Below, in pieces: positions 29,560 to 59,260 of a stretch of DNA of 64,000 bases. This stretch comes from a virus (taxonomy: Duplodnaviria > Heunggongvirae > Uroviricota > Caudoviricetes). Positions within the stretch are counted from its first letter, which is position 1; each line of letters begins with the position of its first letter. The stretch spans positions 32,421 through 96,420 of the IMG/VR virus record IMGVR_UViG_3300048573_000453. One strand, given 5' to 3'. Under the pieces are notes generated by a model, which did not search any database, had not been told where the DNA came from, and was given only the letters and a program-made list of their open reading frames with translations. The position numbers and the translations under genes are program-made.

Positions 29560-29566
29560 TGATCCT

Positions 29567-30873: not shown

Positions 30874-30933
30874 CGTTTCATCAACGGTGGGACGGTTTTC
30901 AAGACCGTGTGTCTGCCATAGACCCTACACTCC
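30844..30933 (-). tRNA. tRNA-Ser(TGA), type II
   Basis: Anticodon arm ACGGT-CTTGAAA-ACCGT; long variable arm CCGTT-GATGA-AACGG; T-loop TTCGATT; 3' CCA encoded. Confidence 0.8.
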
Positions 30934-30947
30934 AAAAATACTTTGAT

Positions 30948-31031
30948 TGGATGCCCCAGGTATCGAACCTGGCATGTTATAAAAACGCGGAGTGTTCAAT
31001 TCCGGCCACCTCCTTAGTGGTATAGACATCC
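30948..31031 (-). tRNA. tRNA-like, type II with long variable region; anticodon ambiguous (9-nt loop ATTGAACAC)
   Basis: Acceptor GGATGTC/GGCATCC; D-arm TACC..GGTG; T-arm CCAGG-TTCGATA-CCTGG; weak 4-bp anticodon stem. Confidence 0.4.
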
Positions 31032-31044
31032 AATTTTAAAACCC

Positions 31045-31095
31045 CTTTGTCCGGCCAGCTGGATTCGAACCAGCGACTTATTGCTTAGCTTACCA
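31045..31095 (-). other. tRNA 3'-half-like segment (T-arm GCTGG-TTCGAAT-CCAGC + acceptor 3' strand TGGCCGG)
   Basis: Base-pairs over 13 nt with the 5'-half-like segment at 31510..31556. Confidence 0.35.
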
Positions 31096-31401
31096 CTATA
31101 GCTTTCGCTACTGAGAATTTTTATCTTCCCGCGCGTGGTCTGAGCTTTGTCTTCATCTGTTCTAGATGGTAGCCGTCAAGTCTCTACACGTTCCTTTTTC
31201 AAGGCTTCGCTCGGCGTTGGCATAAAAATACTGTCCTCTGGATTAAATGTATTTATGCAGCGTTCGCCGAATTTGACTACATTCACAATAAACATCCCTA
31301 TTTATGTGCCCCATTAGAACTGTTTAACATATTTGCTTCTTATTCATTGTCGTAGAATTATTGTAACTCAAATTATTCTATCTAGAATAATAAATTAAAA
31401 T

Positions 31402-31494
31402 GTACTTTGCTCGCCAGAGTGGATTCGAACCACCATTGACTCCGTTACGGTACTACGCTTTAGAAGAGCGCTCCGGTACTGGCGAGCAAAGTAC
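31402..31494 (-). other. inverted-repeat-bounded tRNA-like element (16-bp IR GTACTTTGCTCGCCAG)
   Basis: Contains T-arm GGTGG-TTCGAAT-CCACT and an anticodon-like hairpin GCGCT-CTTCTAA-AGCGT (UCU); no canonical D-arm. Confidence 0.35.
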
Positions 31495-31509
31495 AATCAG
31501 GTAAAAGGT

Positions 31510-31556
31510 TAAATACTCAAAATTACTCTATCCATCTGAGTTATGGCCGGACAAAG
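31510..31556 (-). other. tRNA 5'-half-like segment (acceptor 5' strand CCGGCCA + D-arm ACTC-AGATGGAT-AGAGT)
   Basis: 13-bp inverted repeat with 31045..31057 (CTTTGTCCGGCCA / TGGCCGGACAAAG). Confidence 0.35.
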
Positions 31557-31594
31557 AGGTCTTTCTAATCATATACAAATTTCCAAAACATAAA

Positions 31595-31708
31595 TGGTAG
31601 GCCGTGTTGGACTCGAACCAACGACCAAAGGATTATTCTTCGGCTTCTTTTGTTATTATCCAACAGAATGCCTGAGTCCTCTGCTCTAACCAACTGAGCT
31701 AACGGCCC
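31595..31708 (-). tRNA. tRNA with expanded anticodon region (114 nt; ~38 extra nt between anticodon-stem halves)
   Basis: Acceptor GGGCCGT/ACGGCCT + A + CCA; D-arm GCTC-AGTTGGTT-AGAGC; T-arm GTTGG-TTCGAGT-CCAAC; stem halves GAGGA ... TCCTT are 44 nt apart. Confidence 0.55.
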
Positions 31709-31890
31709 ACACTTTTTGCATTCTCCAATTATACCATACTTTTCTATCTTTACAAATTTATTTTTGTTTTACTAAAGAATAAACAGTTCGATTTCTTCTT
31801 CAGAAGGAGTTTTTCTGCCAAGAATCTTGTAAAAAGCTTTTGAATTTTCTATCCATTCCGGGGAAGCAAATGCAAAATTTACGTTTCTAT

Positions 31891-36078: not shown

Positions 36079-36156
36079 TGGTGCCGCTTATCTGACTCGA
36101 ACAGGCGGCACCTATTGCTTACACGGCACGTACTCTTCTAACTGAGCCAAAGCAGC
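36079..36156 (-). tRNA. tRNA-like, 78 nt with CCA, degenerate anticodon arm (possible pseudogene)
   Basis: Acceptor GCTGCTT/AAGCGGC; D-arm GCTC-AGTTAGAA-GAGT; T-loop TTCGAGT; anticodon stem not convincingly pairable. Confidence 0.4.
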
Positions 36157-36162
36157 AATAAC

Positions 36163-36238
36163 TGGCTCCCTAGCGTGGGATCGAACCACGGACAACTTGA
36201 TTAACAGTCAAGCGCTCTACCGACTGAGCTACTAGAGA
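36163..36238 (-). tRNA. tRNA-Asn(GTT)
   Basis: D-arm GCTC-AGTCGGT-AGAGC; anticodon arm CTTGA-CTGTTAA-TCAAG; T-arm CGTGG-TTCGATC-CCACG; CCA encoded. Confidence 0.85.
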
Positions 36239-36246
36239 ATAAATTT

Positions 36247-36324
36247 TGGTTGCGGATGCTGGATTCGAACCAGCGACCTCTTGATTATGAGCCAAGTGAG
36301 ATAACCATGCTTCTCTAATCCGCA
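36247..36324 (-). tRNA. tRNA-Met/Ile2(CAT)
   Basis: Acceptor TGCGGAT/ATCCGCA; anticodon arm CTTGG-CTCATAA-TCAAG; T-arm GCTGG-TTCGAAT-CCAGC; CCA encoded. Confidence 0.8.
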
Positions 36325-36337
36325 ACAAATTTAAAAT

Positions 36338-36412
36338 TGGCGTCCCTACCTGGAATCGAACCAGGTCCTGCAGCGTGAAAGGCTATCGATCTAACCAGTA
36401 ATCTATAGGGAC
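36338..36412 (-). tRNA. tRNA-Glu(TTC)
   Basis: Acceptor GTCCCTA/TAGGGAC; anticodon loop CTTTCAC; T-arm CCTGG-TTCGATT-CCAGG; CCA encoded; 4-nt variable loop. Confidence 0.75.
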
Positions 36413-44765: not shown

Positions 44766-45182
44766 ATGGCTAAAAATCAAGCACCGACCTTGTGCGTTGA
44801 AGATACGGGGGAAGCATCTTACGTGTCCCTCTTGGAATATAAAAGGGAACATTATCTCTGCGTTATTGATAGGATTTCATCTGATGAAATTACGGCATAC
44901 GTGCTAGATTATGCCGAAGCTGAAAATATACCAATTCAACAATTTCTAAGCGTAGCAAATCTTTGGTTTTATGGAGCCTCTGATGATCACCCGCTATCTG
45001 TAGAGCTCGCAGCAAAAGGCCTTACAGACGTGCTTTCGCCAATCTATAAGACCTTTGATGCTAACTATGTTTCACGTATAATTGGCACTACTTTTAATCA
45101 TGCTAATACGGAATCGAAAATAAAACGAAGAAAAGCAATTCCTGTAGTCGAAGGAACGCCAGTTCGACTTAAAAAGCGGTGA
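44766..45182 (+). CDS. hypothetical protein (138 aa), plus strand
   Basis: AAAGGAATTT RBS; late-promoter-like CATAAATAAT upstream; divergent from the ligase gene. Confidence 0.5.
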   Translation: MAKNQAPTLCVEDTGEASYVSLLEYKREHYLCVIDRISSDEITAYVLDYAEAENIPIQQFLSVANLWFYGASDDHPLSVELAAKGLTDVLSPIYKTFDANYVSRIIGTTFNHANTESKIKRRKAIPVVEGTPVRLKKR

Positions 45183-46194
45183 GATTGTAAAGACGCTTTA
45201 GGTGTGACAACTTAAACATATTAAATTGGTCAGTCAATTCTTGAGTCTTTTCCTTCAAAACTGATTTAGCAACAGCTTCATCTACTTCTTCGAAACGGGC
45301 ATCAAGATAGGCCAAAGCCCCTTCAATTGTTTCTTTTCCCTCTTTTACAGAGCGCAGATAATCAGAATTAGGTCGTGGGAATATTAGCGCTCCGGTTCTT
45401 GAAATCTCAACAATCTGTTCAACAATGCGAATTGCATGGCTCAACGCTTTCCAATCTGCATGCTGGCCCTCAAAGCTTTTAACGCGTTCCCCGTATGAAT
45501 CTAGCGTATTCAACAGTGAACTGTAAACTTGCCACCAAGTATTAGACATCAAAAACTTTGGAGAAATAACTTGAATGCCAGGAGCGGTTTCAATTCCTCC
45601 TTTAGCATTGAGAATTTCTATACGTGTGACGTTTGGAAACTTGAGGATTTTGTCAATCAGCTCAGAGGACTCAGGAGAATCAAGCCGGGCTTTACGCATT
45701 ACTTCAGTCTCTGAACCAAAGTAATCTTTGATCGTATCGACAACCTTCTTCAATGAAGTGTATCGATCATTTTTAAGGCCGTAAGCTTTCGACTGCGAGA
45801 TAGCATAACCGACCATCTTCTTCACAGAATTGGTCATATAATGATCAACCATCTCCCTCATCATTTGAACTTCTGAAGGCTTAACACGTTCTGATTCGCC
45901 ATTAAGAACGGCAAATGCAACTTCCAATGCGTAAGTTTGCCCGTTAAAGAAATCATCAAAAAATACCTGAAGCGGCAAGTATTCGGTTTCTGATTCCCCA
46001 GCCTGCACTTTATCGCTCTGTGAACGCCCTTCGGGCTTTTCCTTGCGATTAGTTACCTTCTTATTAAGCAGCAGATCATCAAGCTTTGGAAGAACTACGG
46101 CCTTATAGTCATAGTCAGATTCTGGTCCGAAAGTTCCATAAAGACGAGAGCCACTAGGTACCGTAAACAGTGTCGTTTCTTTTTCAGCTTTCAT
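45169..46194 (-). CDS. nucleotidyltransferase-fold protein
   Basis: PSGSRLYGTFGPESDYDY (GS-x9-DxD) motif. Confidence 0.45.
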   Translation of the reverse strand: MKAEKETTLFTVPSGSRLYGTFGPESDYDYKAVVLPKLDDLLLNKKVTNRKEKPEGRSQSDKVQAGESETEYLPLQVFFDDFFNGQTYALEVAFAVLNGESERVKPSEVQMMREMVDHYMTNSVKKMVGYAISQSKAYGLKNDRYTSLKKVVDTIKDYFGSETEVMRKARLDSPESSELIDKILKFPNVTRIEILNAKGGIETAPGIQVISPKFLMSNTWWQVYSSLLNTLDSYGERVKSFEGQHADWKALSHAIRIVEQIVEISRTGALIFPRPNSDYLRSVKEGKETIEGALAYLDARFEEVDEAVAKSVLKEKTQELTDQFNMFKLSHLKRLYNLTAF

Positions 46195-47290
46195 TATTCA
46201 TCTCCTGTCGAATGGCAGTAATCATTGCCAAACTAATTTGGCGTCCAAGTTCTTTACCAGCAAAATTTGCTACGAGGTTGATTATATCAAGATTTGACGT
46301 GATTGAAGCGAATTTTCTCCAATCATGTGCTGAAAAAAGCAAGTTATTTTGTTGTATCGGCCAAAGTGCCGCCAAAACATTTAGGGCACAGTTTGCGTGC
46401 GTGCTAATAGCATTCGTAGAACGAGTCTTTACTAGAGCATAAACAACACCTTCTGCTGAATAGTCAGCAGAAGTAAAAATTTGCAAAGCATTTAAAGCAC
46501 CGTTAACATCATTTCCAAAAACCTTTGCTGCATTTGGCGCCATAACTGAAGAAAAAGTCGCAACTAAAATCTCACTCGTTTCCAAGTTACACTTACGTGC
46601 AGCTTCAAAATGTTTTTTCATTTCAAGAAGATGTGAACTACTTATATCCCCAAAAACATCTTTGAAAAAACGCACGTTCTGAAATACGCCAAGTTTGTAA
46701 AGAAGATCAACGAATCGGCCAAAGTCTGAACCATCGTCAAGGATGACTTTCTCAAACTCTTTTACAAATCGCTCTTTTGAAATGGTATCCATTTCACCAG
46801 ATTTAACAATCTGCTTTGACAATTCCATGGTTTCATCAGCAACAGAAAATTCAGAATAGCGAGCATAAAATCTAGCAAGTCGAACAACGCGCAAAGGATC
46901 TTCAGAAAATGCTAAAGATGTATGGCGAAGAATTTTTGCTTTGATGTCTTTCACGCCGCCATATGGATCAATGTATTCCCCGTTTACGGGGTTGAAAGCT
47001 ATCGAGTTGGTTGTAAAATCCCGACGCTTAAGGTCTGATTCGATTGTGACGTTTTCAGTCTCTACAGAAAATCCTGTATGACCAACACCAGCCTTTTGCT
47101 CAGTTCTAGCCAAAGCCCATTCATCCCCTGTTTCGGGATGGAGGAACACTGGAAATGATGCCCCAACTTGCTTAAAGCCGAGTCGAATCATTTCTTCAGT
47201 CGAAGACCCGACTACGACCCAATCAACATCCTTCGGCTCGCGCCCCATGAGTTGATCGCGAACGGCGCCTCCGACTTTATAAACATCCAT
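46184..47290 (-). CDS. cca: tRNA nucleotidyltransferase (CCA-adding enzyme), head domain plus body
   Basis: GGAVRD ... DVDW ... RRDFTTNS class II CCA/poly(A) polymerase motifs. Confidence 0.8.
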   Translation of the reverse strand: MDVYKVGGAVRDQLMGREPKDVDWVVVGSSTEEMIRLGFKQVGASFPVFLHPETGDEWALARTEQKAGVGHTGFSVETENVTIESDLKRRDFTTNSIAFNPVNGEYIDPYGGVKDIKAKILRHTSLAFSEDPLRVVRLARFYARYSEFSVADETMELSKQIVKSGEMDTISKERFVKEFEKVILDDGSDFGRFVDLLYKLGVFQNVRFFKDVFGDISSSHLLEMKKHFEAARKCNLETSEILVATFSSVMAPNAAKVFGNDVNGALNALQIFTSADYSAEGVVYALVKTRSTNAISTHANCALNVLAALWPIQQNNLLFSAHDWRKFASITSNLDIINLVANFAGKELGRQISLAMITAIRQEMNNES

Positions 47291-47322
47291 TTTAATTCCT
47301 TCGACTAAAAAAATTACGCCCT

Positions 47323-47616
47323 TCAGTCTCGCATGAACTTCTTAATTTTTGCCTTTTTGCTATTTGCAGCTTCGGTAATAGTATCCCAGTTCAAATTCAT
47401 CTGTGATAGCTCAGTGTTCATAATCATGTCAGTCATGCCAACCACATCACCAAGTTCTATGACTAGGTGTTGAATATTGGATGTTCGAAACGGATCTTCT
47501 GGGTGATAGCTGTCAACCCCGAATCGCTTAATTTTCGAGATAGCTTGAATTACTTCAGCACACTCTTCTTGAAGAATGTCTAGCAGATCGATGGTTTTTT
47601 GGGAAAGTTGTTTCAT
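47323..47616 (-). CDS. MazG-like nucleotide pyrophosphohydrolase (small)
   Basis: EExxE...ExxD pattern in a ~97-aa helical protein. Confidence 0.45.
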   Translation of the reverse strand: MKQLSQKTIDLLDILQEECAEVIQAISKIKRFGVDSYHPEDPFRTSNIQHLVIELGDVVGMTDMIMNTELSQMNLNWDTITEAANSKKAKIKKFMRD

Positions 47617-48182
47617 AAAACTCCGGCTTGAATTAAAAATAGTTGAAGGACGATAACGTGAGCGTATGCAATACTGTGGGCCTTTTTAAAAGTATAACCG
47701 TTTTCATCTTTGGCATACAACAGTGTTCTTGTTGCTATAGGATGTGCTTGATAGAGCGTTAACAGTTTCTTTTTTCCTGGTCTAATAAGCGCTAAAACGT
47801 CTGCTAATTGTACAATACTTTTGGGCTTTATAGCATCTAGTACAGATGAATGATTTGCTAATTGAAACAATTTGGGCTGATGTTCAGGGTCTAAAAGAAT
47901 TGACCAATCCGGTTCAAGGCATAAGAGCTCCTCGATTTCCTGTCGCGATTTGAAATGCGAGTATACATTAAGATGTAAAAAGTCGATTTTCATAAAACCG
48001 ACCTGTTCGGCTTCTTCATATGGAATAGCACAGAGCTTCGTGAGATGATCAACCGGAACAGGTTGGGGGTATACTCCACAAGGATGTGGACCGAGTTTCC
48101 CATTCTTAACCATGCTTGCTTTAGTCCATCCGAAAGCCTTACTTGGGTTAAACGTGTTTACTATATCAATATCGACATCCAT
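47613..48182 (-). CDS. hypothetical protein (189 aa)
   Basis: ORF. Confidence 0.45.
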   Translation of the reverse strand: MDVDIDIVNTFNPSKAFGWTKASMVKNGKLGPHPCGVYPQPVPVDHLTKLCAIPYEEAEQVGFMKIDFLHLNVYSHFKSRQEIEELLCLEPDWSILLDPEHQPKLFQLANHSSVLDAIKPKSIVQLADVLALIRPGKKKLLTLYQAHPIATRTLLYAKDENGYTFKKAHSIAYAHVIVLQLFLIQAGVL

Positions 48183-49039
48183 TAGAGCCCCATCTCTTTT
48201 GCAATATGCTTAATATTGTCAATGGCTGCTTTCTCAGTTTTAAAACGTTCTGCCCAATAAGCAGAATTTACTACCTGATTGAAAGCTTTAAGCTGTGACA
48301 TGTCCAGAGTCTTTAAAAAAGCACCAAAGCTTGTAGAACAGAATAGCAACCAAGGAGTCAACCTACGTTGTCTAATTAAAGACAAAACGGTATTCGGCCC
48401 GAGATGGGTAAAAATCTCTCGTAAATCAACCTTCTCCTTACCTGCAGTATCAATCAAATAAGAAATCGAATCTTGAACTTGATCTAGCGGATCTGAAATT
48501 TTGTCTGACCAATCTAAGTACAGTGCATAAGCAGAATCGCGGCACCAAAGAATTGGCAAAATATTGCCTTCGACCATCAACGAAATAAATTTGTTCGGGT
48601 TGGAAATATTTGCTTTTACTACAAGTTCAGAGAAATTAATGAATGCGCGGTAATATTTGGACTCCAAGAATGCGGCAGAAGAAGGCTGACTAAATTTCTT
48701 CTGCCGCATCCATTCACGATAGAACCCATAAGCAGTTTGTCCAACAGGACTTAGCAACTCTTGAGCACGTCTACGCGGTTCGCAAAAATGCTTCATGAAG
48801 GTAGTTTCAGTGGCAAACCTTTTTGTGCAATAGTGACAATACCAGTTGCCAATTTTGCCCAAATTTATTTCCGCATCTTCTAAAGGAATCCTACGTGCTG
48901 CAATCTCTTCAGCATTAAGAATTTTAGGGACCCTTGGTGGGTTTTGCTGTGACTGTTTCACCTTTCCATTTCCATCCCGGTTTAGTAGGTTCTCCGAATC
49001 CACGGAAGAATCTGATAAAATTTCTAATGACATGTTCAT
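48182..49039 (-). CDS. hypothetical protein with a C2HC zinc-finger-like motif (285 aa)
   Basis: CHYCTKRFATETTFMKHFC. Confidence 0.45.
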   Translation of the reverse strand: MNMSLEILSDSSVDSENLLNRDGNGKVKQSQQNPPRVPKILNAEEIAARRIPLEDAEINLGKIGNWYCHYCTKRFATETTFMKHFCEPRRRAQELLSPVGQTAYGFYREWMRQKKFSQPSSAAFLESKYYRAFINFSELVVKANISNPNKFISLMVEGNILPILWCRDSAYALYLDWSDKISDPLDQVQDSISYLIDTAGKEKVDLREIFTHLGPNTVLSLIRQRRLTPWLLFCSTSFGAFLKTLDMSQLKAFNQVVNSAYWAERFKTEKAAIDNIKHIAKEMGL

Positions 49040-49565
49040 CTATATGTGGCGTATTTACAGTTACATGGAGACCAACTACGGGCAAACCATAGTCTTTGAC
49101 AACAATTTTTGGCTGCACTTTTACTGGCAGAGCTGAAAGTTCGGCTTGTATTTTCTTCTTTCGTTTTCTGGCCTCTCTGTAAGCTTCATTAAATGGCAGT
49201 ACTGCCATAATTGTACCATCTTTTTTGTCTTTAATGAAACTTGGGAAGTCTGCAAGCTCAATTGCTTTGTCTTCAATCAGGGCGTAGGCTTCATAATTCA
49301 CCGTAGACATGGCTACAGCAAAATATAGCTTCTTTTGGGAATGGAAAAAATGAAAGTCTACCAATTGCCAGTTATGCCCGGGATCGTAAAACCGATCGCA
49401 ATAAAAATCTCCATTATAGGCACATTCTGGATATCGAACCATTAGCCGCTTCGCAAATATGTACGTCGCTTTACGCTTTTTGCGATTTGAAACCCGTAAA
49501 CCATATCTAGAAAATCGTATTGGCATGCTATTCCTTATTTGTTTTTGCCCTAATCTCCAGGCCAA
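48924..49565 (-). CDS. hypothetical basic protein (213 aa; 116-nt overlap with the downstream gene, start uncertain)
   Basis: ORF. Confidence 0.4.
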   Translation of the reverse strand: MAWRLGQKQIRNSMPIRFSRYGLRVSNRKKRKATYIFAKRLMVRYPECAYNGDFYCDRFYDPGHNWQLVDFHFFHSQKKLYFAVAMSTVNYEAYALIEDKAIELADFPSFIKDKKDGTIMAVLPFNEAYREARKRKKKIQAELSALPVKVQPKIVVKDYGLPVVGLHVTVNTPHIDEHVIRNFIRFFRGFGEPTKPGWKWKGETVTAKPTKGP

Positions 49566-49626
49566 CTAAACGCAGACATTTGCGAAGGCTGTTTGCGTGC
49601 AGGTTTTGCAATATGGCAGGTGATTT

Positions 49627-50085
49627 TTAGCGAAGTTTGCCATTCAATGTTTCAATTTCACTAATTTCCAAAATACGAATGCTGCCATTAAATTTTGCAG
49701 CATCAGCACAAAGCGTATTATAAATTGAACGTGCTAACATAGTCATCCTATGTGAAGCGTTTTGGCAGAAATAAGTGCTACCACTTGAATTTTTGAATTC
49801 GAAAAAATCTTCATGCTTAACAACATGCTCAATAGAAGAACCAAGTTTCCACGAATCTACGCCCGCAAAACCCCCATACCAGGATGCTAAGATCCTAAAC
49901 ACTGTTTTATTAGCATCTTTGATCTCTACTACAACCCAGCCATCAGGAGTATATTCACTCACTTTTGAATTCCTTTTTGAGCTTTGCAATTCGATCTTTG
50001 TCCCAGCCAAGTTCTTCTGCCATTTGCAAGATTTCTTCTTGAGGCGGAAGAGAGTAAGTTTTAGCTTCCCGTTCAGAGATACCAA
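49627..50085 (-). CDS. hypothetical protein (start uncertain; overlaps the upstream gene by 131 nt)
   Basis: ORF. Confidence 0.35.
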   Translation of the reverse strand: MVSLNGKLKLTLFRLKKKSCKWQKNLAGTKIELQSSKRNSKVSEYTPDGWVVVEIKDANKTVFRILASWYGGFAGVDSWKLGSSIEHVVKHEDFFEFKNSSGSTYFCQNASHRMTMLARSIYNTLCADAAKFNGSIRILEISEIETLNGKLR

Positions 50086-50416
50086 AATACTGTTTAATAA
50101 CTTCTACGCACTCGACAGATTTTTTGTTAGACTTTACGCCTAGCCAAGCATATCGCTTGGGCTTCTTAGAAGATGCAACTTGCAACAATTGCATAAGAAG
50201 ATGCGGGTGATCACTTAAAGTGAAAACGCTCGGATTAACAAATTCATTAAGCATCATAATCTGCCGCTCATCTGAAGTTCCCGTCATCCAACGCATGACG
50301 ACTAAAGGGGCAAAACCTTTTCGTTCGTCTTCAGTCAGTTTGCTGTAAATGTCTCCGCTTCGGGGGCTGTCAATGTTGGACAACAGCCCAAAAATGTCAA
50401 GTTTATAGGCGGCCAT
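49955..50416 (-). CDS. hypothetical protein, possible clamp-loader small subunit (gp62-like)
   Basis: Position near the gp44-like gene and weak C-terminal resemblance; low confidence. Confidence 0.3.
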   Translation of the reverse strand: MAAYKLDIFGLLSNIDSPRSGDIYSKLTEDERKGFAPLVVMRWMTGTSDERQIMMLNEFVNPSVFTLSDHPHLLMQLLQVASSKKPKRYAWLGVKSNKKSVECVEVIKQYFGISEREAKTYSLPPQEEILQMAEELGWDKDRIAKLKKEFKSE

Positions 50417-50738
50417 GTTTTTTCATATATTCTTCTTCAGCGAAACGAAGAGCTTCTCGCTCTGCCTCGATATCGATAGGTGGAGTATCTTCAGGGTTGT
50501 CGCTCAGCATGGCACGGTCCGCAATGTAATCAGCCCAAGCATGCAAAATCTTGCGAACTCTATCACGGCCCATGCATTCATTCTCAACAACAAGGGTTCC
50601 GTCTTTTGACAGAAAAACTTCTAGTTGACCAAATCCGCAACCTGTCCACTCCCAATTAAAATAAGTTTGCGCGCTATGCGCGAGGCTGACTGTGGGTTGA
50701 TTCGCATTAATAATAGCTCGACGTTCTTCTGGGGTCAT
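50403..50738 (-). CDS. hypothetical protein (111 aa)
   Basis: ORF. Confidence 0.45.
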   Translation of the reverse strand: MTPEERRAIINANQPTVSLAHSAQTYFNWEWTGCGFGQLEVFLSKDGTLVVENECMGRDRVRKILHAWADYIADRAMLSDNPEDTPPIDIEAEREALRFAEEEYMKKHGRL

Positions 50739-51001
50739 TTTAAACCTTTCTCTTCATATGCTTGCTTTTTGTTGTCAGTAATTATGTCAGTGCACCGCTG
50801 TTGATCCCATTCGCATTTGTCTGGCATCCCATCAGGGAAAGTGACACTGCAACTTGCGCATACCCATTCACACTCATTTCTGGCAGCTCGCATAGTCCAT
50901 TCACATGTAAATGCATCTATATCCGTAAAAACTTCGTCCCGCTTCGTTGAATCGCAAATGAAAATCCCCAGAATCATAGTTTCCCCAAAGAAATGAAGCA
51001 T
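50735..51001 (-). CDS. small Cys-rich protein (88 aa)
   Basis: CEW...CASC...CEW...C pattern. Confidence 0.45.
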   Translation of the reverse strand: MLHFFGETMILGIFICDSTKRDEVFTDIDAFTCEWTMRAARNECEWVCASCSVTFPDGMPDKCEWDQQRCTDIITDNKKQAYEEKGLK

Positions 51002-51885
51002 GCTGCCAAATTTATTTCAGTGTCTGAAACCAATGCGTGCGATTTCAAATATTCGGCAATAGTAACAATTGCCGCTTCCTTATCAGAAATTTTCATTCGC
51101 TCGATATTCGTATACAGGAACGTATAAACATCTTCGTGCTCTTCACGTGTTGCTGATTCGCAGACAAGTTTACGGGCTCGTTTAAAATCCCCCGCGGAAA
51201 TTGCATCCAGCAGCCCAAACTTCCAATCTGCAGAGTCCGAAGACATTTGCTGCGGGTTGAGAAGCTTTCCGTTCTGAACATTGCCCTGTAGCAACTGGAT
51301 GATCTTGCGAATATCTGGGTAACCAACATCTACATAAGTTAGTAATGTTTCCGCATCATACTCTACCTGTTCTTTTTCAAGAATTTCAGCAACATGAACC
51401 GCAACCTTTTCTTTGTCTGGGGCCTTAAAATAAAATTCTTGGAATCGCGATTTCAGGGCCGGAATAACTCTATTCGCATAATTGCATGTTGCAATATACC
51501 GACATGTTCTAGAAGTCTCTTCAATCAATGCGCGGAGCAATGCCATTGATTCAAGTGAAAGGTAATCAACCTCTTCAAGACGTACAACTTTAAAATCACC
51601 AAGAGGCATCGACATTGCAAACGAAGTAACTCGATTGCGAAGCGCTTCAATCTTTTCATCAGAACAGTTAATTTTTAAAACATCTGATGAAGCAACGTTC
51701 AGGTCTTTGATAAGGGACAGGGACGTAGAAGTTTTTCCGGTTCCTTGGACTCCGCTTAAAAACAAGTGAGGAATATCTCCTGCAGCAATAAAGCTTTTAA
51801 ACTTTTCGCGCTGGCGTTCATCTTGAAAAATGACGTCTTTAATAGACTTTGGACGGTAGCGTTCTACCCAAATAGAAGTTTTCAT
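50974..51885 (-). CDS. clamp loader ATPase subunit (RFC small subunit / T4 gp44-like)
   Basis: WVERYRPKSIKDV N-terminal RFC box; Walker A GVQGTGKTS. Confidence 0.7.
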   Translation of the reverse strand: MKTSIWVERYRPKSIKDVIFQDERQREKFKSFIAAGDIPHLFLSGVQGTGKTSTSLSLIKDLNVASSDVLKINCSDEKIEALRNRVTSFAMSMPLGDFKVVRLEEVDYLSLESMALLRALIEETSRTCRYIATCNYANRVIPALKSRFQEFYFKAPDKEKVAVHVAEILEKEQVEYDAETLLTYVDVGYPDIRKIIQLLQGNVQNGKLLNPQQMSSDSADWKFGLLDAISAGDFKRARKLVCESATREEHEDVYTFLYTNIERMKISDKEAAIVTIAEYLKSHALVSDTEINLAACFISLGKL

Positions 51886-51917
51886 AAAATATGTTTGCTC
51901 TAAAAGTAATTTAAAAA

Positions 51918-53024
51918 TTATTCTCGTCGGTAAACTTTTGCAACTGTTGAATAAGTGTCATTAGTAAACTCTATATCAGCATTACTGACATTGATTTCTT
52001 CCATGGAGGTCTTAAAAGGCAATACCTGTTGCCGGGGAATCGGTGCATCTGGGTAAACGATTTGTCCAGCAGCTTGATCGGCATCGTCCAACGATGATTT
52101 AAAAACTTGCGATTTTAGTGAGCGCATAGTAATTATTTCAGGTTGTTCGGTCTTAGCTTCAGCAGGTTCATTTTCTGCAGGCGGAACTACAGACGGTTTT
52201 TGAGGTTCTTCAACAGGCTCCTTTTCAACTTGTGGTTCAACTTTTATATTGTACTTCCATGGCACAATTGTTGGCTCGACTTTTTTAACTGGTGGTTTAA
52301 CAGGGGCTTGGAAAACAGGAAGTTCCTGGACAGCAGGTTCAAGTTCACTCTTCCTACGAGCAATAAGAAAGTTTCCAGCCACAAGTAGAGCAACTGCTAA
52401 CGGGTCAAACACGAAAATGATGAACAGAATGACCCATTTTACTGCTTGTTCTGGCGTAGTATTAAATACGCTAGCGACATACATGATTGGGCCAATTTTT
52501 GTGTTTTGACTGATCGCATTTACCTTGAGTTCTGGCAGCTCTTTATCTATGGCTACCAAGCGCTTATTGATAGAAGTAGATTCAACCTTAAATTGGTTGG
52601 TTAGGCGGACTCTGCTCGTCACAGAATTTGCAGGAAGATTCGCAATTTGCGCATCGATTTCCTCTTTGCGTTTCTGTAGGCGATCCTTCTCCTCGGTTAG
52701 GGCATCAATTAGGACCGTTTGCTGGTTGTTTCCAGAGATAGCTTTTTGGAATTCCCCAGAGAGGAATCCAAAAACTCCAGCCGAAGTAATGATCATCAGG
52801 ACCAATGTAGCAAATGACATGTAAAACTTCATTTTCAAACTGATTTCTTTCCAGTTTTTGTACAAGAACGTTACACTAGCGACTTTGGCAATATCCAGAG
52901 AAACTGCCATCGCAATTACAATCGGGCTTCCGGCAAAGAGTGCGCTAAGGCCGAGTACGCTAATCCAAGTTCCTAACCCCTCAAGTAAAAATGCAGACAA
53001 CATTACAAATGCAATAAACAGCAT
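51918..53024 (-). CDS. membrane protein with Pro/Val-rich region (368 aa)
   Basis: Multiple hydrophobic segments. Confidence 0.5.
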   Translation of the reverse strand: MLFIAFVMLSAFLLEGLGTWISVLGLSALFAGSPIVIAMAVSLDIAKVASVTFLYKNWKEISLKMKFYMSFATLVLMIITSAGVFGFLSGEFQKAISGNNQQTVLIDALTEEKDRLQKRKEEIDAQIANLPANSVTSRVRLTNQFKVESTSINKRLVAIDKELPELKVNAISQNTKIGPIMYVASVFNTTPEQAVKWVILFIIFVFDPLAVALLVAGNFLIARRKSELEPAVQELPVFQAPVKPPVKKVEPTIVPWKYNIKVEPQVEKEPVEEPQKPSVVPPAENEPAEAKTEQPEIITMRSLKSQVFKSSLDDADQAAGQIVYPDAPIPRQQVLPFKTSMEEINVSNADIEFTNDTYSTVAKVYRRE

Positions 53025-53049
53025 CGGCGCACCCTCTTTCTATCATCGT

Positions 53050-53373
53050 TTAAAAAGCGTATGTTACTGACTCATCTAAACCGATTGCAATAACTTTTGA
53101 ATCATCAGATTTCCAATAACCTTTATCTTCAAATTTATGTTCCACTGTCCACTGTAGGGATTCAATGAGGACCAGATCGCCTTCGGAGAAATCTTCCACT
53201 TTATCTCCTACAGCGATTACTTTCCCCCATCGGGCAGAATTGCCTTGTTGCGAAACATCTTGATTGGTTAGAATGATTGTACTACGATTTTTCTCAATAA
53301 ACCGTCCACCTACAGTCTCATTTACAAAAGAGAATAGAAAGGAGCGTCCTAGAGGTTTAAGTTTTGAAGTCAT
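53050..53373 (-). CDS. GroES-family co-chaperonin (T4 gp31-like)
   Basis: LKPLGRS...GKVIAVG...GDLVL pattern; ~107 aa. Confidence 0.55.
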   Translation of the reverse strand: MTSKLKPLGRSFLFSFVNETVGGRFIEKNRSTIILTNQDVSQQGNSARWGKVIAVGDKVEDFSEGDLVLIESLQWTVEHKFEDKGYWKSDDSKVIAIGLDESVTYAF

Positions 53374-53588
53374 TTTTTTGCTTTAGCTGATGTTTTAGCT
53401 GATTCTGAAGCCATAGATAGTGCTGCTGGAAGCACAGTAGTTTTTGATTTGGCCCCGTCTTTTTCATCGATGAATTTCCGACGATCGTTTACGCTAACAG
53501 GCGTTGGTGTCGACATGAGCTGCTGTTTAATTGCAAGCATATCAAAGTCCACCATTGTGCCTCGTGCGCTTCGTGTTTTTGATGACAT
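53370..53588 (-). CDS. hypothetical protein (72 aa)
   Basis: ORF. Confidence 0.4.
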   Translation of the reverse strand: MSSKTRSARGTMVDFDMLAIKQQLMSTPTPVSVNDRRKFIDEKDGAKSKTTVLPAALSMASESAKTSAKAKK

Positions 53589-53630
53589 TTTAATTTCCTC
53601 CTAAGGTATAAAGATCTATTTATCACTAAT

Positions 53631-54161
53631 TTAATCGTGAAAAAACTCAAGATGCGAGATGTCGTATTTCACTGGGTCAATACAGTGAACGCCAATTAAG
53701 AACATTATTAGGGAAGCGCATGAAGATCCCCGGCCAACTCCATACACTACCCCATTAGATTTAAAGTAATCAATAACATACATTAGCGTTTTGACCAGGC
53801 TGTCAAGATTGCGCGCTTTGATCTCCTGAAGTTCTATTTCGAGGCGCTCCTGATATTTTTGGAAATTTGCAACATATTCAAACTTTTCTGAAAGCAGATT
53901 GTGAAGCGTTGTTGAAATTTCCAAATTGAAAAATCGACTTGGAATCTTCCAACTAAAATCTGGAGAAAAGTCAATATCTACTTCTCCGCATTTTATCGAA
54001 ACATCAGCAAGTCGATTGTACTCAAGAACGTCATCGTCACATTCAAAGGCTGCAATTTTTTCAATTGGAACTCCCTGAATGAGCAGATCGACAATTTTAT
54101 CAGACGAAACTTGACAGGTCCCATCATAAAATAGGATCCTGTCTTCAAGAACTGTTTTCAA
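53631..54161 (-). CDS. hypothetical protein (176 aa)
   Basis: ORF. Confidence 0.45.
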   Translation of the reverse strand: MKTVLEDRILFYDGTCQVSSDKIVDLLIQGVPIEKIAAFECDDDVLEYNRLADVSIKCGEVDIDFSPDFSWKIPSRFFNLEISTTLHNLLSEKFEYVANFQKYQERLEIELQEIKARNLDSLVKTLMYVIDYFKSNGVVYGVGRGSSCASLIMFLIGVHCIDPVKYDISHLEFFHD

Positions 54162-54448
54162 TTTGCCGCTTTGGTAATCATTTGAACTGCGTGAGCTGAA
54201 AGCTTTCGCAGTACTGTATCCTGAACATTGGTATAAGGCTGCTCAACAAAAAACTGCACTTGACCCCATTGCCCGGTTTCCAGAAACTTTGCAGCAGATT
54301 CAATGTGAGCGGAATTCGTCGGATCGAAAAATTCACGAGAAATTACAAAACGACGGAGAATGTTAGAAGTCATCAACATATTTTTGGTCCTATTGAAAAG
54401 ATTGTGTTCTACGAACTTAAGGTTTTTTGGTAGCTTGTTCAACAGCAT
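54158..54448 (-). CDS. hypothetical protein (96 aa)
   Basis: ORF. Confidence 0.4.
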   Translation of the reverse strand: MLLNKLPKNLKFVEHNLFNRTKNMLMTSNILRRFVISREFFDPTNSAHIESAAKFLETGQWGQVQFFVEQPYTNVQDTVLRKLSAHAVQMITKAAN

Positions 54449-54743
54449 TGAACTTTTCGCTAAATTCGCTTTTTCGTTCAGTTTCTGTCATTTCAGGCTT
54501 ACGATTTCGATCAGTGATTTCTGCAGTAGATTTCTCAAAAACTGGGTTACTAAGACCTTGCGACTTGCCTTTCGGCAAGTAACTCGGGGTGATAGCGTTC
54601 AGCAAAATAAGCGTTGTAAAACAGGTAACTAAAAGAAACATGCTTTTCCCGATGGTCAACTTCTTTTTACTATGCAGAACGTATGCACTGATTATAAACA
54701 AAATCAGCACAATAATCGGCAGGAAGTTAAAAAATAATACCAT
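54417..54743 (-). CDS. small membrane protein (108 aa)
   Basis: Hydrophobic ORF. Confidence 0.45.
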   Translation of the reverse strand: MVLFFNFLPIIVLILFIISAYVLHSKKKLTIGKSMFLLVTCFTTLILLNAITPSYLPKGKSQGLSNPVFEKSTAEITDRNRKPEMTETERKSEFSEKFNAVEQATKKP

Positions 54744-55642
54744 TATTTTGAATTCGCAGTCGGCATAGTCATCAACACATTGGCCGCCTTATCACCACCC
54801 ATAACAGTTTGTGGCAGAGCGCCATCCCATTTTTCAATCCATGCACGCTCATTTTCCAGTTGGCGAAGTTTCAAAACTTTGTCATCAACCACGGCCCGCT
54901 GAATTTCCTGACTCTTAGCTTCAATTTGAGCTTTCTCCAGTTCAATTTGTCGACGTAGACGGGTTTCTTGAAGTTCGCGTTCCAATGTCACTTTCGAAAT
55001 TTGCAATTGAGCTTCTTCTTGTTGAATACGTTCACGACGCTCAGCAGCATTTTCTTGTGCCTCAGTGATAATTTCGGGGTACTTGATCGAAGTGATACCA
55101 GCGTAGCGCACTGTGAAAGGGGTTCGTTCTTGAATACGTTTGGACAGAGCTTCACGCAAGTCGCCGTTTACCTTTTCAAGGCTACCTGCGATTTCTGCAA
55201 TGCTGTACTTTGACAAGTATTCACGAGTCTCGGTCAAGACGATTTGCTTGGCATAGGTGCTATAAATGAAGTCCCAAGGAATCAAACCGACTTCACCGTC
55301 AGATTGCGTTGGCGGGATAGTAGAAAACAACGATTCTGCTTTACGCGGGTCAATAGACAGCGTCACCTGCATGACAACGTCCAAATTCAACTTATCTTCT
55401 GGGATGAAGATAGTCAAAGACTCTTGCTTAGCCTTATCAGAAGCATCCATCAAGACCAGCTTGTCACAGTACCAAATACAGAATGGCAGGCGAAATTTAC
55501 TAGTCGGGATTGTATTTTCCTGGTAGCCATCCTTGGTCATGATCTTACCCACGTGAGCAGGAGGAACTTCGACTCGCTGGCCACAGGCAGCAAGGATCAT
55601 GACAGAGGTAGCAATAATAGAAGTTTTAAAAATAGATTTCAT
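54743..55642 (-). CDS. lipoprotein with SPFH/band-7-like region and C-terminal coiled coil
   Basis: Signal peptide + lipobox ILAAC; coiled-coil EEAQLQISKVTLERELQETRLRRQIELEKAQIEAK. Confidence 0.45.
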   Translation of the reverse strand: MKSIFKTSIIATSVMILAACGQRVEVPPAHVGKIMTKDGYQENTIPTSKFRLPFCIWYCDKLVLMDASDKAKQESLTIFIPEDKLNLDVVMQVTLSIDPRKAESLFSTIPPTQSDGEVGLIPWDFIYSTYAKQIVLTETREYLSKYSIAEIAGSLEKVNGDLREALSKRIQERTPFTVRYAGITSIKYPEIITEAQENAAERRERIQQEEAQLQISKVTLERELQETRLRRQIELEKAQIEAKSQEIQRAVVDDKVLKLRQLENERAWIEKWDGALPQTVMGGDKAANVLMTMPTANSK

Positions 55643-55902
55643 CGGAAGATCCTAAAAGTTGTGGTGAGCGAATTATACCACAATTTTGCTTAGTGGTGGC
55701 AATTTTTGCCAGACGGATGATACCGCTCTAGAACCTGATGCCATGCCGCCACGGGAGCCTGCTACTGCAGAACTCCTTGAAGATGCAACGTTGCTTACTT
55801 CAGAAGCTTATTTGCCCAATCATTTCGGGGCTTAACAGCAATTCTTTTCATTAAAAGCAGGCCTTAATTAAATTATAAATAAAATTTTATAGGAGTGAGA
55901 TT

Positions 55903-56469
55903 ATGAAAATACAGGAAATTTTTGATACTAACGTAGATGTCGAATGGCAGCAAAATGGTAGATTTGAACTAGCATCATTTGTTTATGGTGAAACTTATGT
56001 AATCCAGATCGAGAAAAAGAAAATACCCAAACTAACGGAATTAAATGGTGCGAAACTGGCTGAAGCTTCATTTTACCGGACCGGAATTGAAGGGGAAAAC
56101 GCTTCGTTCACGACGACTAAGCAAGCAATTGACGTTCCGGTCCGAATTTACGGTGTAGTTTTAAATGCGGTTTCTGAAAAAATTGACGAATATGATGCGT
56201 TTATTTTTACTGCTGAAACAAAGCATTGTAGAACGGCTGAAGAGTTTTCATCAAAAAGGGATATTTATTCTGCAATCGCTGATAGAATAACTAAACGAAT
56301 GCACAACATTTTTTATTATGAACGCTTAACTGAAAATTCAGCGGAGTTTTTAATTACAAAAATTAAGCTATCGGAAGAAACTCAGGATAAAACAAATTTT
56401 AAAAACCCAAGGGCTGAAGCCATAAAAGCATTGAATTTGAAACCTACGGTATTACGTCCTAAATCTTGA
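55903..56469 (+). CDS. paralog family A protein (plus strand; tandem duplicate 1)
   Basis: Exact TATAAATA late-promoter-like octamer and AGGAG RBS upstream; MKIQEIFDT... like 56466..57023. Confidence 0.55.
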   Translation: MKIQEIFDTNVDVEWQQNGRFELASFVYGETYVIQIEKKKIPKLTELNGAKLAEASFYRTGIEGENASFTTTKQAIDVPVRIYGVVLNAVSEKIDEYDAFIFTAETKHCRTAEEFSSKRDIYSAIADRITKRMHNIFYYERLTENSAEFLITKIKLSEETQDKTNFKNPRAEAIKALNLKPTVLRPKS

Positions 56470-57023
56470 AAATACAAGAAATCTTTGATACGTCTGCGGA
56501 TATAGTTTGGCAGCAAAACGGTAGATTTGAACTAGCATCATTTGTGTGCGGTGAAAAATATGTTATTCAGATTGATAGAAAAAATCTAAATCAGTTCCCA
56601 GAATTAAAGCGTTCAAGGGTCGCAGAAATTTCGTTTTTTCGCTATGATGTTGATGATTCTGACGCAGCGCATACTACTGCACGGCAAGACTTAGATGTGC
56701 CCGTTAAAGTTTACGGAATAGTTTTAAATGCTCTATTAAAAAAGATGGAAGAATACGACGCATTCTTTTTCTCCGCGGAAACCAAACATTCGCCAACATT
56801 AGAAGAATACAAGTCTAAGAAATCAATTTATTTCTGGATTGCCGACCGCGTTTCTAAAAAATTATCAGGCGTAACACTTTATGAATACGAATGCAATGTT
56901 AGCGCACAATTCTTAATAAGCAAAATCAAACTTGCCAAAGAAACACAAAACGCGACCGGCTTTAAAAATGCACTTGCAGAAGCTTTAGCTGCTACCACAT
57001 TCACTTTTGCAAGCGCCAAATAA
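56466..57023 (+). CDS. paralog family A protein (tandem duplicate 2)
   Basis: Start overlaps the stop of copy 1. Confidence 0.55.
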   Translation: MKIQEIFDTSADIVWQQNGRFELASFVCGEKYVIQIDRKNLNQFPELKRSRVAEISFFRYDVDDSDAAHTTARQDLDVPVKVYGIVLNALLKKMEEYDAFFFSAETKHSPTLEEYKSKKSIYFWIADRVSKKLSGVTLYEYECNVSAQFLISKIKLAKETQNATGFKNALAEALAATTFTFASAK

Positions 57024-57025
57024 TT

Positions 57026-57829
57026 TCAAATTGATAGAAAGGGTATAGGAAACATCGAAGTGAGTCGCAAAGCCGAACAATCTGGAAGATACCCAATATC
57101 AAGTTCTGAAATTACTGAACGCTTAATAATCGGTGCATGATCCGGCCGATGCTTCTCTGGTATTTTAGAAAGTTGTTCCCGAGAAAGTCTCGAAATAACA
57201 TGTTGCCGTTTTACAAACGTGCCAGATTTAAAATGTAACGGTTCTAAATGCCATGGTTTCCCAATTTCCTGAAGCATGCGTTTTTTCTCTTCGCTGCAAA
57301 CACCGTGAAGCTGCTTACTTGAAAAGTGCGCTTGCGCTGCCATAGAAATGCTGTTCTTAATAGCGTCATTCTGTCGCCACAGGAAGTTTAGATATACATC
57401 TTTTGGCACGACATTCCAAACGCGCGCATCAAAAACGGGAATAGCATCAGCTTTTTCCGGAATGCGTTTACCCAATTCCTTTGCAAAATATGCGCTCGCC
57501 ATTCCAGCCATCACAGAACAAAGCTTTTGGTACTTTCCATCGTACCAGTATTGGCGAGTTTCAGTTTGGTCGTTAAACCAATACAAACTGATTTCATCTG
57601 ACTGTGTATATCCAAGTTCAGCATTTGTCTTTTCAACCAAATATTTGGTCGTATCAATCATAAGTCGGCTAAGGCGCAAATCATATGGTCGCTTCAAGCC
57701 TTTGGTAAATGTGTGAAACGCTTTGCCATCAAGGCGACACATCAACGGAAGCGTGGCATCACATTTTCTACCGGCTTCTGCCTGTTCATCAGATTTCAAA
57801 CGATCACCAAGTTTATCTTCTTTGTTCAT
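57026..57829 (-). CDS. Thg1-like protein (tRNA-His guanylyltransferase / 3'-5' polymerase family)
   Basis: CRLDGKAFHTF; KRPYDLRLSRLM; GYTQSDEISLYW matching Thg1 motifs. Confidence 0.75.
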   Translation of the reverse strand: MNKEDKLGDRLKSDEQAEAGRKCDATLPLMCRLDGKAFHTFTKGLKRPYDLRLSRLMIDTTKYLVEKTNAELGYTQSDEISLYWFNDQTETRQYWYDGKYQKLCSVMAGMASAYFAKELGKRIPEKADAIPVFDARVWNVVPKDVYLNFLWRQNDAIKNSISMAAQAHFSSKQLHGVCSEEKKRMLQEIGKPWHLEPLHFKSGTFVKRQHVISRLSREQLSKIPEKHRPDHAPIIKRSVISELDIGYLPDCSALRLTSMFPIPFLSI

Positions 57830-58200
57830 AGTAGGATGAAAATAATTAAAACGTAAGTTAGGGAATGTAGAAACTGATCAAAGCCTAATAGGACCCAGAA
57901 CTGTTCGTGGGTTGTAGGTTCATATCCGAGCTTTTTATTGAGATTCATTTTTGCCCAATCAATATGGTAATGAATAAATCCATCTAAAAGCCCCAACATA
58001 ATCGCCATTGGCAAATTAGCAAACCAAATTAAAACAAGATAAGTTCCCCAAGCATGTAAACCAGAATGAATCAACCCGCCAGGATGCCCGTAGGTCCCCT
58101 TGTTTTTGTACTGGTACGGGAATGCCTGCAATGGGAAATCCACAATAAAATGTTTTGAAAATAGTAAAACTAAAACTACTAAAATTTGTTCAGGTGTCAT
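57826..58200 (-). CDS. membrane protein (124 aa)
   Basis: Hydrophobic ORF. Confidence 0.45.
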   Translation of the reverse strand: MTPEQILVVLVLLFSKHFIVDFPLQAFPYQYKNKGTYGHPGGLIHSGLHAWGTYLVLIWFANLPMAIMLGLLDGFIHYHIDWAKMNLNKKLGYEPTTHEQFWVLLGFDQFLHSLTYVLIIFILL

Positions 58201-58270
58201 ATTTCAAAATATTCAGTATTGATGCAGAATTTTTGACATCTCTTCAAAAACCTCATGGCTTACTAGCATT

Positions 58271-58723
58271 TTACTTCCAGTCTAGATCAAGCGGTTCAGT
58301 GTATTCCTGGCCCAGAAGGATCGGGAATGTTATGGGAGGCAAGTTAATCTCATCTCCAGTGAAATTATAACACAGAGAAACATGCGGATGGTAAACCGGG
58401 TAGTCGTAAGTCGCAGAATGTTTTGCCATGAGCTGCAAATGGCGTGCGACAAGTAGCGGGCAGTGAAGTAGTGCAACTAAAGTTTTTGTGCCGTCTTCGT
58501 TAGGGAAGATGGTGAAGTCTTTAAACTCGGCCTCGAACACTGTATCGGGTTCGGCTATGATGTCGTGTTTCTTACGACTATAGATGACTGTAGTATGCAA
58601 AGTGGATGGGCACTCTTCGATGCCAACATCTTTTGCATATGCAAGCAGTTTCTTCTCGGTTTCCGGGAGAACGTACAACCCGACATACGTTCCTTCCGTA
58701 TGATAAAGATCTTGTAATTTCAT
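58271..58723 (-). CDS. 2H phosphoesterase superfamily protein (LigT/Acb1-like)
   Basis: Two H-x-T/S-x motifs: HTTVIY and HVSLCY; ~150 aa. Confidence 0.55.
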   Translation of the reverse strand: MKLQDLYHTEGTYVGLYVLPETEKKLLAYAKDVGIEECPSTLHTTVIYSRKKHDIIAEPDTVFEAEFKDFTIFPNEDGTKTLVALLHCPLLVARHLQLMAKHSATYDYPVYHPHVSLCYNFTGDEINLPPITFPILLGQEYTEPLDLDWK

Positions 58724-59259: not shown

Positions 59260-59260
59260 T

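Follow-up and report, generated by a model that had tools for sequence, protein, structure and literature searches.

Three predicted RNA-end nucleotidyltransferases and an Acb1-family phosphodiesterase in two gene pairs of a large-phage clade

Does a phage that encodes a Thg1-like protein (TLP), a CCA-adding enzyme, a second nucleotidyltransferase and a 2H phosphoesterase possess a single system that mends tRNA at both ends? The question is raised by a 64,000-nucleotide stretch of DNA from a member of the Caudoviricetes (IMG/VR record IMGVR_UViG_3300048573_000453, positions 32,421 to 96,420; the whole stretch is called the window here), for which an initial annotation had proposed such a system. 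Profile searches supported all four family assignments, with the catalytic residues present, and the proposal survives in part. Three of the proteins belong to families of tRNA- or RNA-end nucleotidyltransferases, and it is moderately probable, judging from their sequences, that they keep the acceptor ends of host and phage tRNAs chargeable during infection. The 2H enzyme belongs with the Acb1 family and most likely stands outside the tRNA toolkit, contrary to what the initial annotation had preferred. The four genes have the coordinates first given and are encoded on the minus strand. They do not make up one locus but fall into two pairs separated by about 10 kb, CCA-RlaP and Acb1-(DUF3307)-TLP, so that the single system does not hold. 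The window derives from an uncultivated, probably jumbo-type, phage clade.

The TLP (57026..57829, minus strand, 267 amino acids) is predicted to be a templated 3′-5′ RNA polymerase of the bacterial type. It matches Pfam Thg1 (PF04446) with an E-value of 2e-27 and 96 bits against a cutoff of 29, and PHROG 4717 with an E-value of 4e-73, and it carries the motifs RLDG (residues 32-35) and SDE (77-79), as expected from its earlier assignment as a Thg1-like protein. The best solved relative is the TLP of Bacillus thuringiensis (BtTLP, PDB 4KGK/4KGM; E-value 3e-37 for 4KGK), whereas the eukaryotic Thg1s are matched at 4e-9 to 6e-5. Residues E15, R32, D34, D78, E79 and M163 align with E12, R28, D30, D75, E76 and M158 of BtTLP, whose metal carboxylates and supporting residues have been described (PMC3701042). 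The phage protein therefore keeps the metal carboxylates, the equivalents of R28 and E12 and the TLP-type methionine at the position of Met158. The carboxylates D34, D78 and E79 (D29, D76 and E77 in hTHG1), together with E15 and R32, are invariant in 28 homologues. The differences from BtTLP are that the protein is phage-encoded and that conservation of the 60 C-terminal residues is confined to the clade. With the eukaryotic tRNA-His guanylyltransferase Thg1 it shares the Pfam family and the catalytic carboxylates, but the similarity is much weaker, the sequence KNSISM, which is also found in BtTLP, stands where Candida Thg1 has HINNLYN, and the window contains no tRNA-His (ARAGORN and the tRNA search). 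Because of the similarity to BtTLP and the KNSISM motif, the protein is classed from its sequence as a bacterial-type member of the TLP subgroup and not as a true Thg1, that is, not as a strict tRNA-His guanylyltransferase. BtTLP itself favours the repair of 5′-truncated tRNAs of any identity (PMC3061083).

The predicted class II CCA-adding tRNA nucleotidyltransferase (46184..47290, minus strand, 368 amino acids) was identified correctly from the outset, with coordinates, profile, motifs and fold in agreement. It matches the PolyA_pol head domain of Pfam (PF01743) with an E-value of 3e-20 and, over residues 1-209, PHROG 2244, labelled 'tRNA nucleotidyltransferase', with an E-value of 2e-90. 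The head motifs A to D (GGAVRD at 7-12, the DVD of D21xD23 at 21-23, RRD at 89-91 and EDPLR at 130-134) are invariant or nearly so across 27 homologues. Residues 1-188 align almost without gaps to positions 1-190 of the 409 positions of the NCBIfam model NF008137, with a score of 262 bits against a cutoff of 451; the score falls short because the enzyme lacks an HD phosphohydrolase domain, none being found by Pfam and the NF008137 match ending at position 190. An AlphaFold2 model (predicted local distance difference test, pLDDT, 94) aligns over its full length to CCA- and A-adding enzymes (350-417 columns, template modelling scores 0.6-0.68, E-values down to 1e-14). The divergent C-terminal half is therefore read as a normal body and tail, and the protein has an E. 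coli-type head and neck followed by a helical body and tail. It resembles the multifunctional CCA addition and repair protein of E. coli in residues 1-188, in motifs A to D and in the class II fold, but differs in having no C-terminal HD phosphohydrolase domain and in its C-terminal 160 residues, which form a divergent helical body and tail common to a phage family of about 360-380 amino acids. As to specificity, which may be CCA-, CC- or A-adding or that of a poly(A) polymerase, the best NCBIfam models are CCA-adding equivalogs and residues 1-188 show no sizeable deletion relative to them, but all of these scores lie below the cutoffs, and the best PDB matches by sequence and by fold include the Aquifex A-adding enzyme.

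The gene that adjoins it encodes a nucleotidyltransferase of the polymerase-beta (Pol-beta) fold that can be placed in the RlaP or T4 NrdC.11 type (45169..46194, minus strand, 341 amino acids). The match to Pfam RlaP (PF10127) has an E-value of 5e-7 and 30 bits against a cutoff of 23, and that to PHROG 388, labelled 'nucleotidyltransferase', has an E-value of 4e-52. A tblastn search retrieved 1437 phage records, including nrdC.11 of KVP40 (33% identity, 96% coverage), and about half of the homologues listed are already annotated with PF10127. The earlier assignment of an adjacent nucleotidyltransferase thus stands, with the motif spacing corrected from GS-x9-DxD to GS-x10-DxD (G15-S16 and D27-x-D29). 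G15, S16, D27, D29 and E91 are invariant in 32 homologues, and we infer that E91 is the third carboxylate. The AlphaFold2 model (pLDDT 88) gave weak Foldseek matches to generic Pol-beta nucleotidyltransferase folds, HalB and kanamycin nucleotidyltransferase, with E-values of about 0.02, and neither sequence nor profile search found an RlaP chain in the PDB copy used. A recent preprint assigns T4 NrdC.11 to the RlaP family and reports that RlaPs of Pseudomonas append one or two nucleoside monophosphates to the 3′-OH of damaged RNA (PMC12776372). The phage protein is like these in its PF10127 match, its GS...DxD motif and its homology to T4-like NrdC.11. The gene context is different, since the Pseudomonas RlaP gene lies between rtcB and rtcA whereas that of the window adjoins the gene for the CCA enzyme.

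The fourth protein, a 2H phosphodiesterase of 150 amino acids (58271..58723, minus strand), has the two motifs that had been noted, H43-x-T45 (HTT, 43-45) and H114-x-S116 (HVS, 114-116). Its family can be given more closely. It matches Pfam Acb1 (PF23474) with an E-value of 6e-30 over profile positions 1-142 of 144, and Acb1 of Erwinia phage FBB1 (7T26) with an E-value of 8e-15. Acb1 has an HxT/HxT tetrad and a C-terminal lid, and it cleaves the cyclic oligonucleotides of CBASS, an antiphage signalling system based on cyclic oligonucleotides (PMC9117128). The protein of the window is like the Acb1 of T4 and FBB1 in its full-length profile match, its 2H motifs of the HxT type and its C-terminal tail, where DLDW aligns with DLEW of FBB1; it is unlike them in its second motif, a conservative change of threonine to serine, and in that its gene lies, in the clade of the window, directly upstream of the TLP gene. 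The PHROG search gave PHROG 755, whose legacy label is 'RNA ligase'. The initial annotation had offered an Acb1-like anti-CBASS enzyme as an alternative, and by the full-length PF23474 match and the match to 7T26 this alternative is the better one. The protein is predicted to be an anti-CBASS cyclic-oligonucleotide nuclease, and since the characterised Acb1 relatives degrade CBASS cyclic oligonucleotides, it most likely has no part in tRNA repair.

The arrangement of the genes bears on whether they work together. The RlaP gene starts inside the end of the CCA gene, the two sharing 11 nucleotides. In the other pair, the gene of a small DUF3307 membrane protein (57826..58200, minus strand; Pfam DUF3307 with an E-value of 2e-7, PHROG 2470 with 5e-19) lies between the Acb1 and TLP genes, its stop overlapping the TLP start by 4 nucleotides and the Acb1 gene lying 70 nucleotides upstream of it. 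The stretch between the pairs encodes, among others, a Band-7 protein, a clamp-loader-like AAA protein and fragments of DNA polymerase III alpha, and the CCA-RlaP pair is flanked by DNA ligase, MazG and metallophosphatase genes. Both pairs lie within the early or replication region of the phage. The MazG-like nucleoside triphosphate pyrophosphohydrolase (47323..47616, minus strand; Pfam MazG with an E-value of 4e-5, PHROG 4856 with 6e-18) is encoded just upstream of the CCA gene and is a syntenic neighbour, for which no role in a repair pathway is claimed. A megablast search with the 13.5-kb region against 50,697 phage records returned no match, and the context was therefore taken from protein searches. 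Identity to proteins of isolate phages is below 55% at best, while identical proteins are present on metagenomic contigs of up to 125.8 kb.

For comparison, 80 IMG/VR loci with TLP homologues and 80 with CCA homologues were used; the TLP locus search needed an alignment, as a single TLP sequence used as the query gave nothing. In the eight closest TLP loci (54-63% identical) the Acb1 gene is directly upstream of the TLP gene. When a hidden Markov model (HMM) of the clade's Acb1 proteins was run on the other 71 loci, none had a copy next to TLP; the sole further copy is 7 kb away in locus L024. As Acb1 stands beside TLP in the clade alone, the adjacency is a matter of clade synteny and not a recurrent association. 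The DUF3307 gene is interposed only in the window and in locus L066 and is found elsewhere in the genome in other relatives. In 18 of the 80 CCA loci an RlaP gene follows the CCA gene on the same strand at a distance of no more than 2.05 kb; the CCA enzymes there are 37-58% identical and the distances to MazG and DNA ligase vary. The CCA-RlaP pair is thus kept together more closely than the genes around it. In 12 related loci MazG precedes the CCA gene. A 368-kb contig from a soil metagenome (JGI Ga0070730_10000005) shows the backbone of the window again, running from Acb1-TLP to CCA-RlaP-DNA ligase, and in it the end of the Acb1 gene and the beginning of the TLP gene have 4 nucleotides in common. 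Both pairs are conserved features of one uncultivated large-phage clade and are best read as clade synteny. Homologues of TLP, the CCA enzyme and RlaP recur on longest contigs of the same sizes (for example 368085, 235146, 79676, 36002 and 29791), and at least eight IMG/VR contigs are common to the TLP and CCA locus lists. Vibrio phage D69 (OZ195729.1) has a nucleotidyltransferase, a TLP (46% identical) and a CCA enzyme (head domain 52% identical) in one region of 20 kb; in D69 the same 20 kb also hold a polynucleotide kinase and the RNA ligases Rnl1 and Rnl2, none of which was detected in the window.

How might the three nucleotidyltransferases serve the phage? For jumbo phages, Iyer, Anantharaman, Krishnan, Burroughs and Aravind (2021) predicted that RlaP, the CCA enzyme and Thg1 put back nucleotides lost from the 3′ and 5′ ends of RNA (PMC7824862). 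The tRNA-end proposal for the window matches this prediction and is in keeping with the biochemistry of bacterial TLPs (PMC3061083) and of RlaP (PMC12776372). In the window, we infer activities, substrates and cooperation from the presence of the genes, their families, catalytic residues, folds and synteny. The threat would come from exonucleases that nibble at tRNA ends or from host toxins that harm them. The MazG-CCA-RlaP group would provide two template-independent 3′-end nucleotidyltransferases from overlapping genes: RlaP, by homology, would place one or two nucleotides on the 3′-OH of damaged RNA, and the class II CCA enzyme, again by homology, would then rebuild C74-C75-A76. The TLP, if it behaves like BtTLP, would activate the 5′-phosphate of a 5′-shortened tRNA and then refill the lost nucleotides of the acceptor stem in the 3′-to-5′ direction, with the 3′ strand as template. 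Acb1 would act apart from these as a counter-defence enzyme that hydrolyses CBASS-type cyclic oligonucleotides. In favour of a shared role of the three nucleotidyltransferases at tRNA ends are the coupling of the CCA and RlaP genes, the recurrence of all three on the same contigs, their closeness to one another in D69 and the tRNA genes near many phage TLP loci.

Several observations weigh against such upkeep of acceptor ends. When the polynucleotide kinase, Rnl1, Rnl2 and phosphoesterase of D69 were used in tblastn searches of the 64-kb window, which is part of a larger genome, none of the four had a detectable homologue; no RNA ligase or polynucleotide kinase was present among the Pfam-labelled genes within 10 kb on either side of the TLP and CCA genes of the 368-kb relative; and the 10-kb left flank held no RNA-repair families. 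RlaP is defined by its association with RNA ligases, from which its name comes, and the RlaP of the window has no such neighbour. The two pairs lie 10 kb apart with replication genes between them, and their conservation may be inherited clade synteny and no more. Promoter and terminator scans gave site counts no higher than in shuffled sequence and so define no transcription units. In the host of this phage no nuclease is known to shorten tRNA 5′ ends. The tRNA genes without an encoded CCA, which had been taken as a sign that CCA addition is needed, are weak evidence for that need, as they look like degenerate, interrupted or duplicated relics.

A bolder proposal would turn the missing ligase to account. 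RlaP may have shifted from an RNA-ligase partner to a translationally coupled CCA enzyme without an HD domain and, with the TLP, may form a ligase-independent route for rebuilding acceptor ends, while the overlap of Acb1 and TLP would mark a counter-defence set. RlaP would restore the discriminator or the last nucleotides of the 3′ strand, the CCA enzyme would re-add CCA, and the TLP would refill the 5′ strand on that template. This is tentative and, in our judgement, unlikely.

Both the gene set and this reading of it have appeared in print for jumbo phages, and as a discovery the window adds little. It shares with the jumbo-phage repertoire of the 2021 survey the same three enzyme families, the same setting in large phage genomes and the same predicted role. 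It differs in that its clade has no cultivated member and in that the distribution of RlaP mirrors that of RNA ligases in the survey, whereas none was found in the 64 kb of the window and RlaP is coupled to the CCA gene. Mildly new are this CCA-RlaP coupling without a detected ligase, the Acb1-TLP adjacency in one clade, and the want of published experiments on phage TLPs. The initial annotation was fair in calling phage Thg1-like proteins poorly characterised: searches of the literature turned up no experimental work on a TLP from a phage. That of the window, which is well-defined and conserved and has clear catalytic residues, would therefore be reasonable to study biochemically. Should the predicted activities prove right, the phage could restore both strands of the acceptor end, and its translation would be protected when toxins or nucleases of the host attack the ends of tRNAs. 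The fourth gene belongs to a characterised anti-CBASS family.

Could the enzymes instead mature the phage's own tRNAs? CCA would be added where it is not encoded, and the TLP would mend 5′ ends or add G-1 to a phage tRNA-His. ARAGORN and Rfam (at its gathering score) each call six tRNAs, with a union of eight, and a weak match at 36082-36156 and a split tRNA-like gene (31049-31550) bring the count to about ten tRNA or tRNA-like features, so that the earlier figure of at least nine was fair. The claim that the enzymes lie beside tRNA clusters overstates how near the clusters are: between the nearest tRNA and the RlaP gene there are 8.8 kb, and the TLP gene is 20.6 kb from it. One cluster (36082..36412, minus strand; ARAGORN and Rfam) consists of Glu(UUC), Met/Ile2(CAU), Asn(GUU) and a Thr-like gene that is degenerate; CCA is encoded in each of them. 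A second region (30844..31709, minus strand) contains Ser(UGA) with CCA, a tRNA(CAU) with CCA and an insert, and two tRNA-like genes without CCA, an aberrant one of 86 nucleotides (30947-31032, minus strand) and the split gene, which encloses a D-armless element. At 28533..28608 (minus strand) ARAGORN calls a tRNA whose anticodon is GCU; its variable loop is short, it does not encode CCA, and its 5′ half is duplicated upstream. The sequences bear out that 28533-28608 and 30947-31032 lack CCA while others encode it.

For maturation of the phage's own tRNAs speak the four tRNA-like genes without CCA (28533-28608, 30947-31032, 31410-31485 and the split gene) and the frequent position of TLP genes within tRNA arrays in other phages, where tRNA genes lie within 10 kb in 23 of the 80 TLP loci and number at least nine in 9 of those 23. 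But every canonical-looking tRNA of the window encodes its CCA (Glu, CAU, Asn, Ser-UGA and also the insert-bearing CAU tRNA), and the genes without CCA are aberrant: one puts GCU on a short-variable-loop body and has its 5′ half duplicated nearby, another is without a D arm, and a third is split by about 408 nucleotides. No mismatch that would call for 5′ editing was seen at acceptor positions 1-3 in the readable tRNAs of the window. The window has no tRNA-His for G-1 addition; elsewhere tRNA-His occurs in only 2 of the 23 TLP-linked tRNA sets, and both genes encode G-1. No tRNA lies within 10 kb of the CCA-RlaP pair in any of the 18 clade loci, and almost all bacterial hosts possess a CCA enzyme of their own. 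Own-tRNA maturation thus appears quite improbable as the main role.

It is just as improbable that the genes are functionally unrelated accessories which share an early region, with the TLP or RlaP using something else than tRNA as substrate, for example other small RNAs or nucleotide signals. The 10-kb separation of the pairs by replication genes would fit this, as would the heterogeneous neighbourhoods of the TLP, near which RlaP is found in 5, the CCA enzyme in 3, Rnl1 in 3 and polynucleotide kinase in 1 of the 80 phage loci. Four 3′-5′ polymerases of Dictyostelium are reported to have distinct biological functions (PMC5041481), which points the same way. On the other side, the three genes share contigs in several phage lineages, and each has characterised homologues that work on the ends of tRNA or RNA. 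TLPs need a 5′-phosphate or triphosphate, which a 2H enzyme does not supply. This, with the full-length match of the 2H enzyme to the Acb1 profile and to a solved Acb1, the want of any adjoining copy in the 71 other TLP loci, and the absence of a kinase or ligase from the window and from the 10 kb around the relative's genes, makes it very unlikely that all four genes form one RNA-repair system in which the 2H enzyme heals 2′,3′-cyclic phosphate RNA ends or otherwise aids the TLP, even though an Acb1-like gene immediately precedes TLP in the eight closest loci, overlaps it in the 368-kb relative and falls under a PHROG with an RNA-ligase label, and even though phage 2H enzymes could also serve RNA repair according to Iyer et al. 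(PMC7824862).

Some further features of the neighbourhoods were observed. A protein with an HD domain, resembling RelA/SpoT hydrolases by eye, is encoded within 4 kb of the TLP gene in six loci outside the clade of the window (L019, L028, L043, L049, L077 and L088), among them Pseudomonas phage 201phi2-1, and could be another link of the TLP to tRNA ends or to alarmones. Between the Band-7 and TLP genes of the window, on the opposite strand (55903-57023, plus), lie tandem paralogues of 188 and 185 amino acids that both begin with MKIQEIFDT; they have no Pfam family and a marginal PHROG match, and in the relative L015 a single copy lies upstream of the Acb1 gene. A 168-amino-acid membrane protein (59261-59767, minus strand) is kept immediately upstream of the Acb1 gene in eight relatives of the clade, while in the window a GNAT-like open reading frame (58735-59409 region) separates the two; its gene is masked by a long overlapping reading frame when the longest frames are simply selected. 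DNA polymerase III alpha appears as separate small reading frames (47613-48182 and 53631-54161, minus strand), and the coding sequences for a DNA_pol3_alpha fragment and (in a relative) for a finger-domain fragment lie several kb from each other, which suggests that the replicative polymerase is split or fragmented in this clade.

The tRNA genes have irregularities of their own. The tRNA(CAU) with CCA at 31595-31709 (minus strand) has a 37-nucleotide insert in its anticodon loop between CTCA and TAATCC. Among IMG/VR matches to its 5′ half the loop is intact (CUCAUAA) in 112 of 120, and three have a group I intron of 205-210 nucleotides at the site; the insert is far too short for such an intron. 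In the split tRNA-like gene (31049-31550, minus strand), a 5′ half with the acceptor and D arm and a 3′ half with the T arm and acceptor stand about 408 nucleotides apart; the outer ends pair over 17 bp, and an anticodon arm cannot be reconstructed. Its interior holds the D-armless tRNA-like element (31410-31485), which has a terminal helix of 16 bp, and an element like a group I intron (31140-31336; Rfam 40.8 bits, E-value 1e-7, below the gathering score) that resembles the tRNA(CAU) introns of other phages, including the P9-like hairpin GUAGCGAAAGCUA. The GCU tRNA combines a serine anticodon with a short-variable-loop body, and its leader and 5′ half are repeated about 1 kb upstream (28533-28608 against 29567-29640, minus strand, with an identical core of 29 nucleotides). 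The copies flank a segment with a reading frame (28804-29418) that matches no family, and the duplication looks like an insertion or recombination scar at a tRNA gene. A 'tRNA-Ile with a 479-nucleotide intron' called by ARAGORN at 29027-29601 was rejected for its poor T arm, its 5′ half being the duplicate of the leader and 5′ half of 28533-28608. Finally, an IS607-type pair (33673-35501, minus strand) lies 0.6 kb from the tRNA cluster and consists of a serine-recombinase TnpA (Resolvase domain, E-value 3e-19) and a TnpB with OrfB_IS605 and Cas12f1-like TNB domains; TnpB genes are found near TLP genes in five further phage loci.

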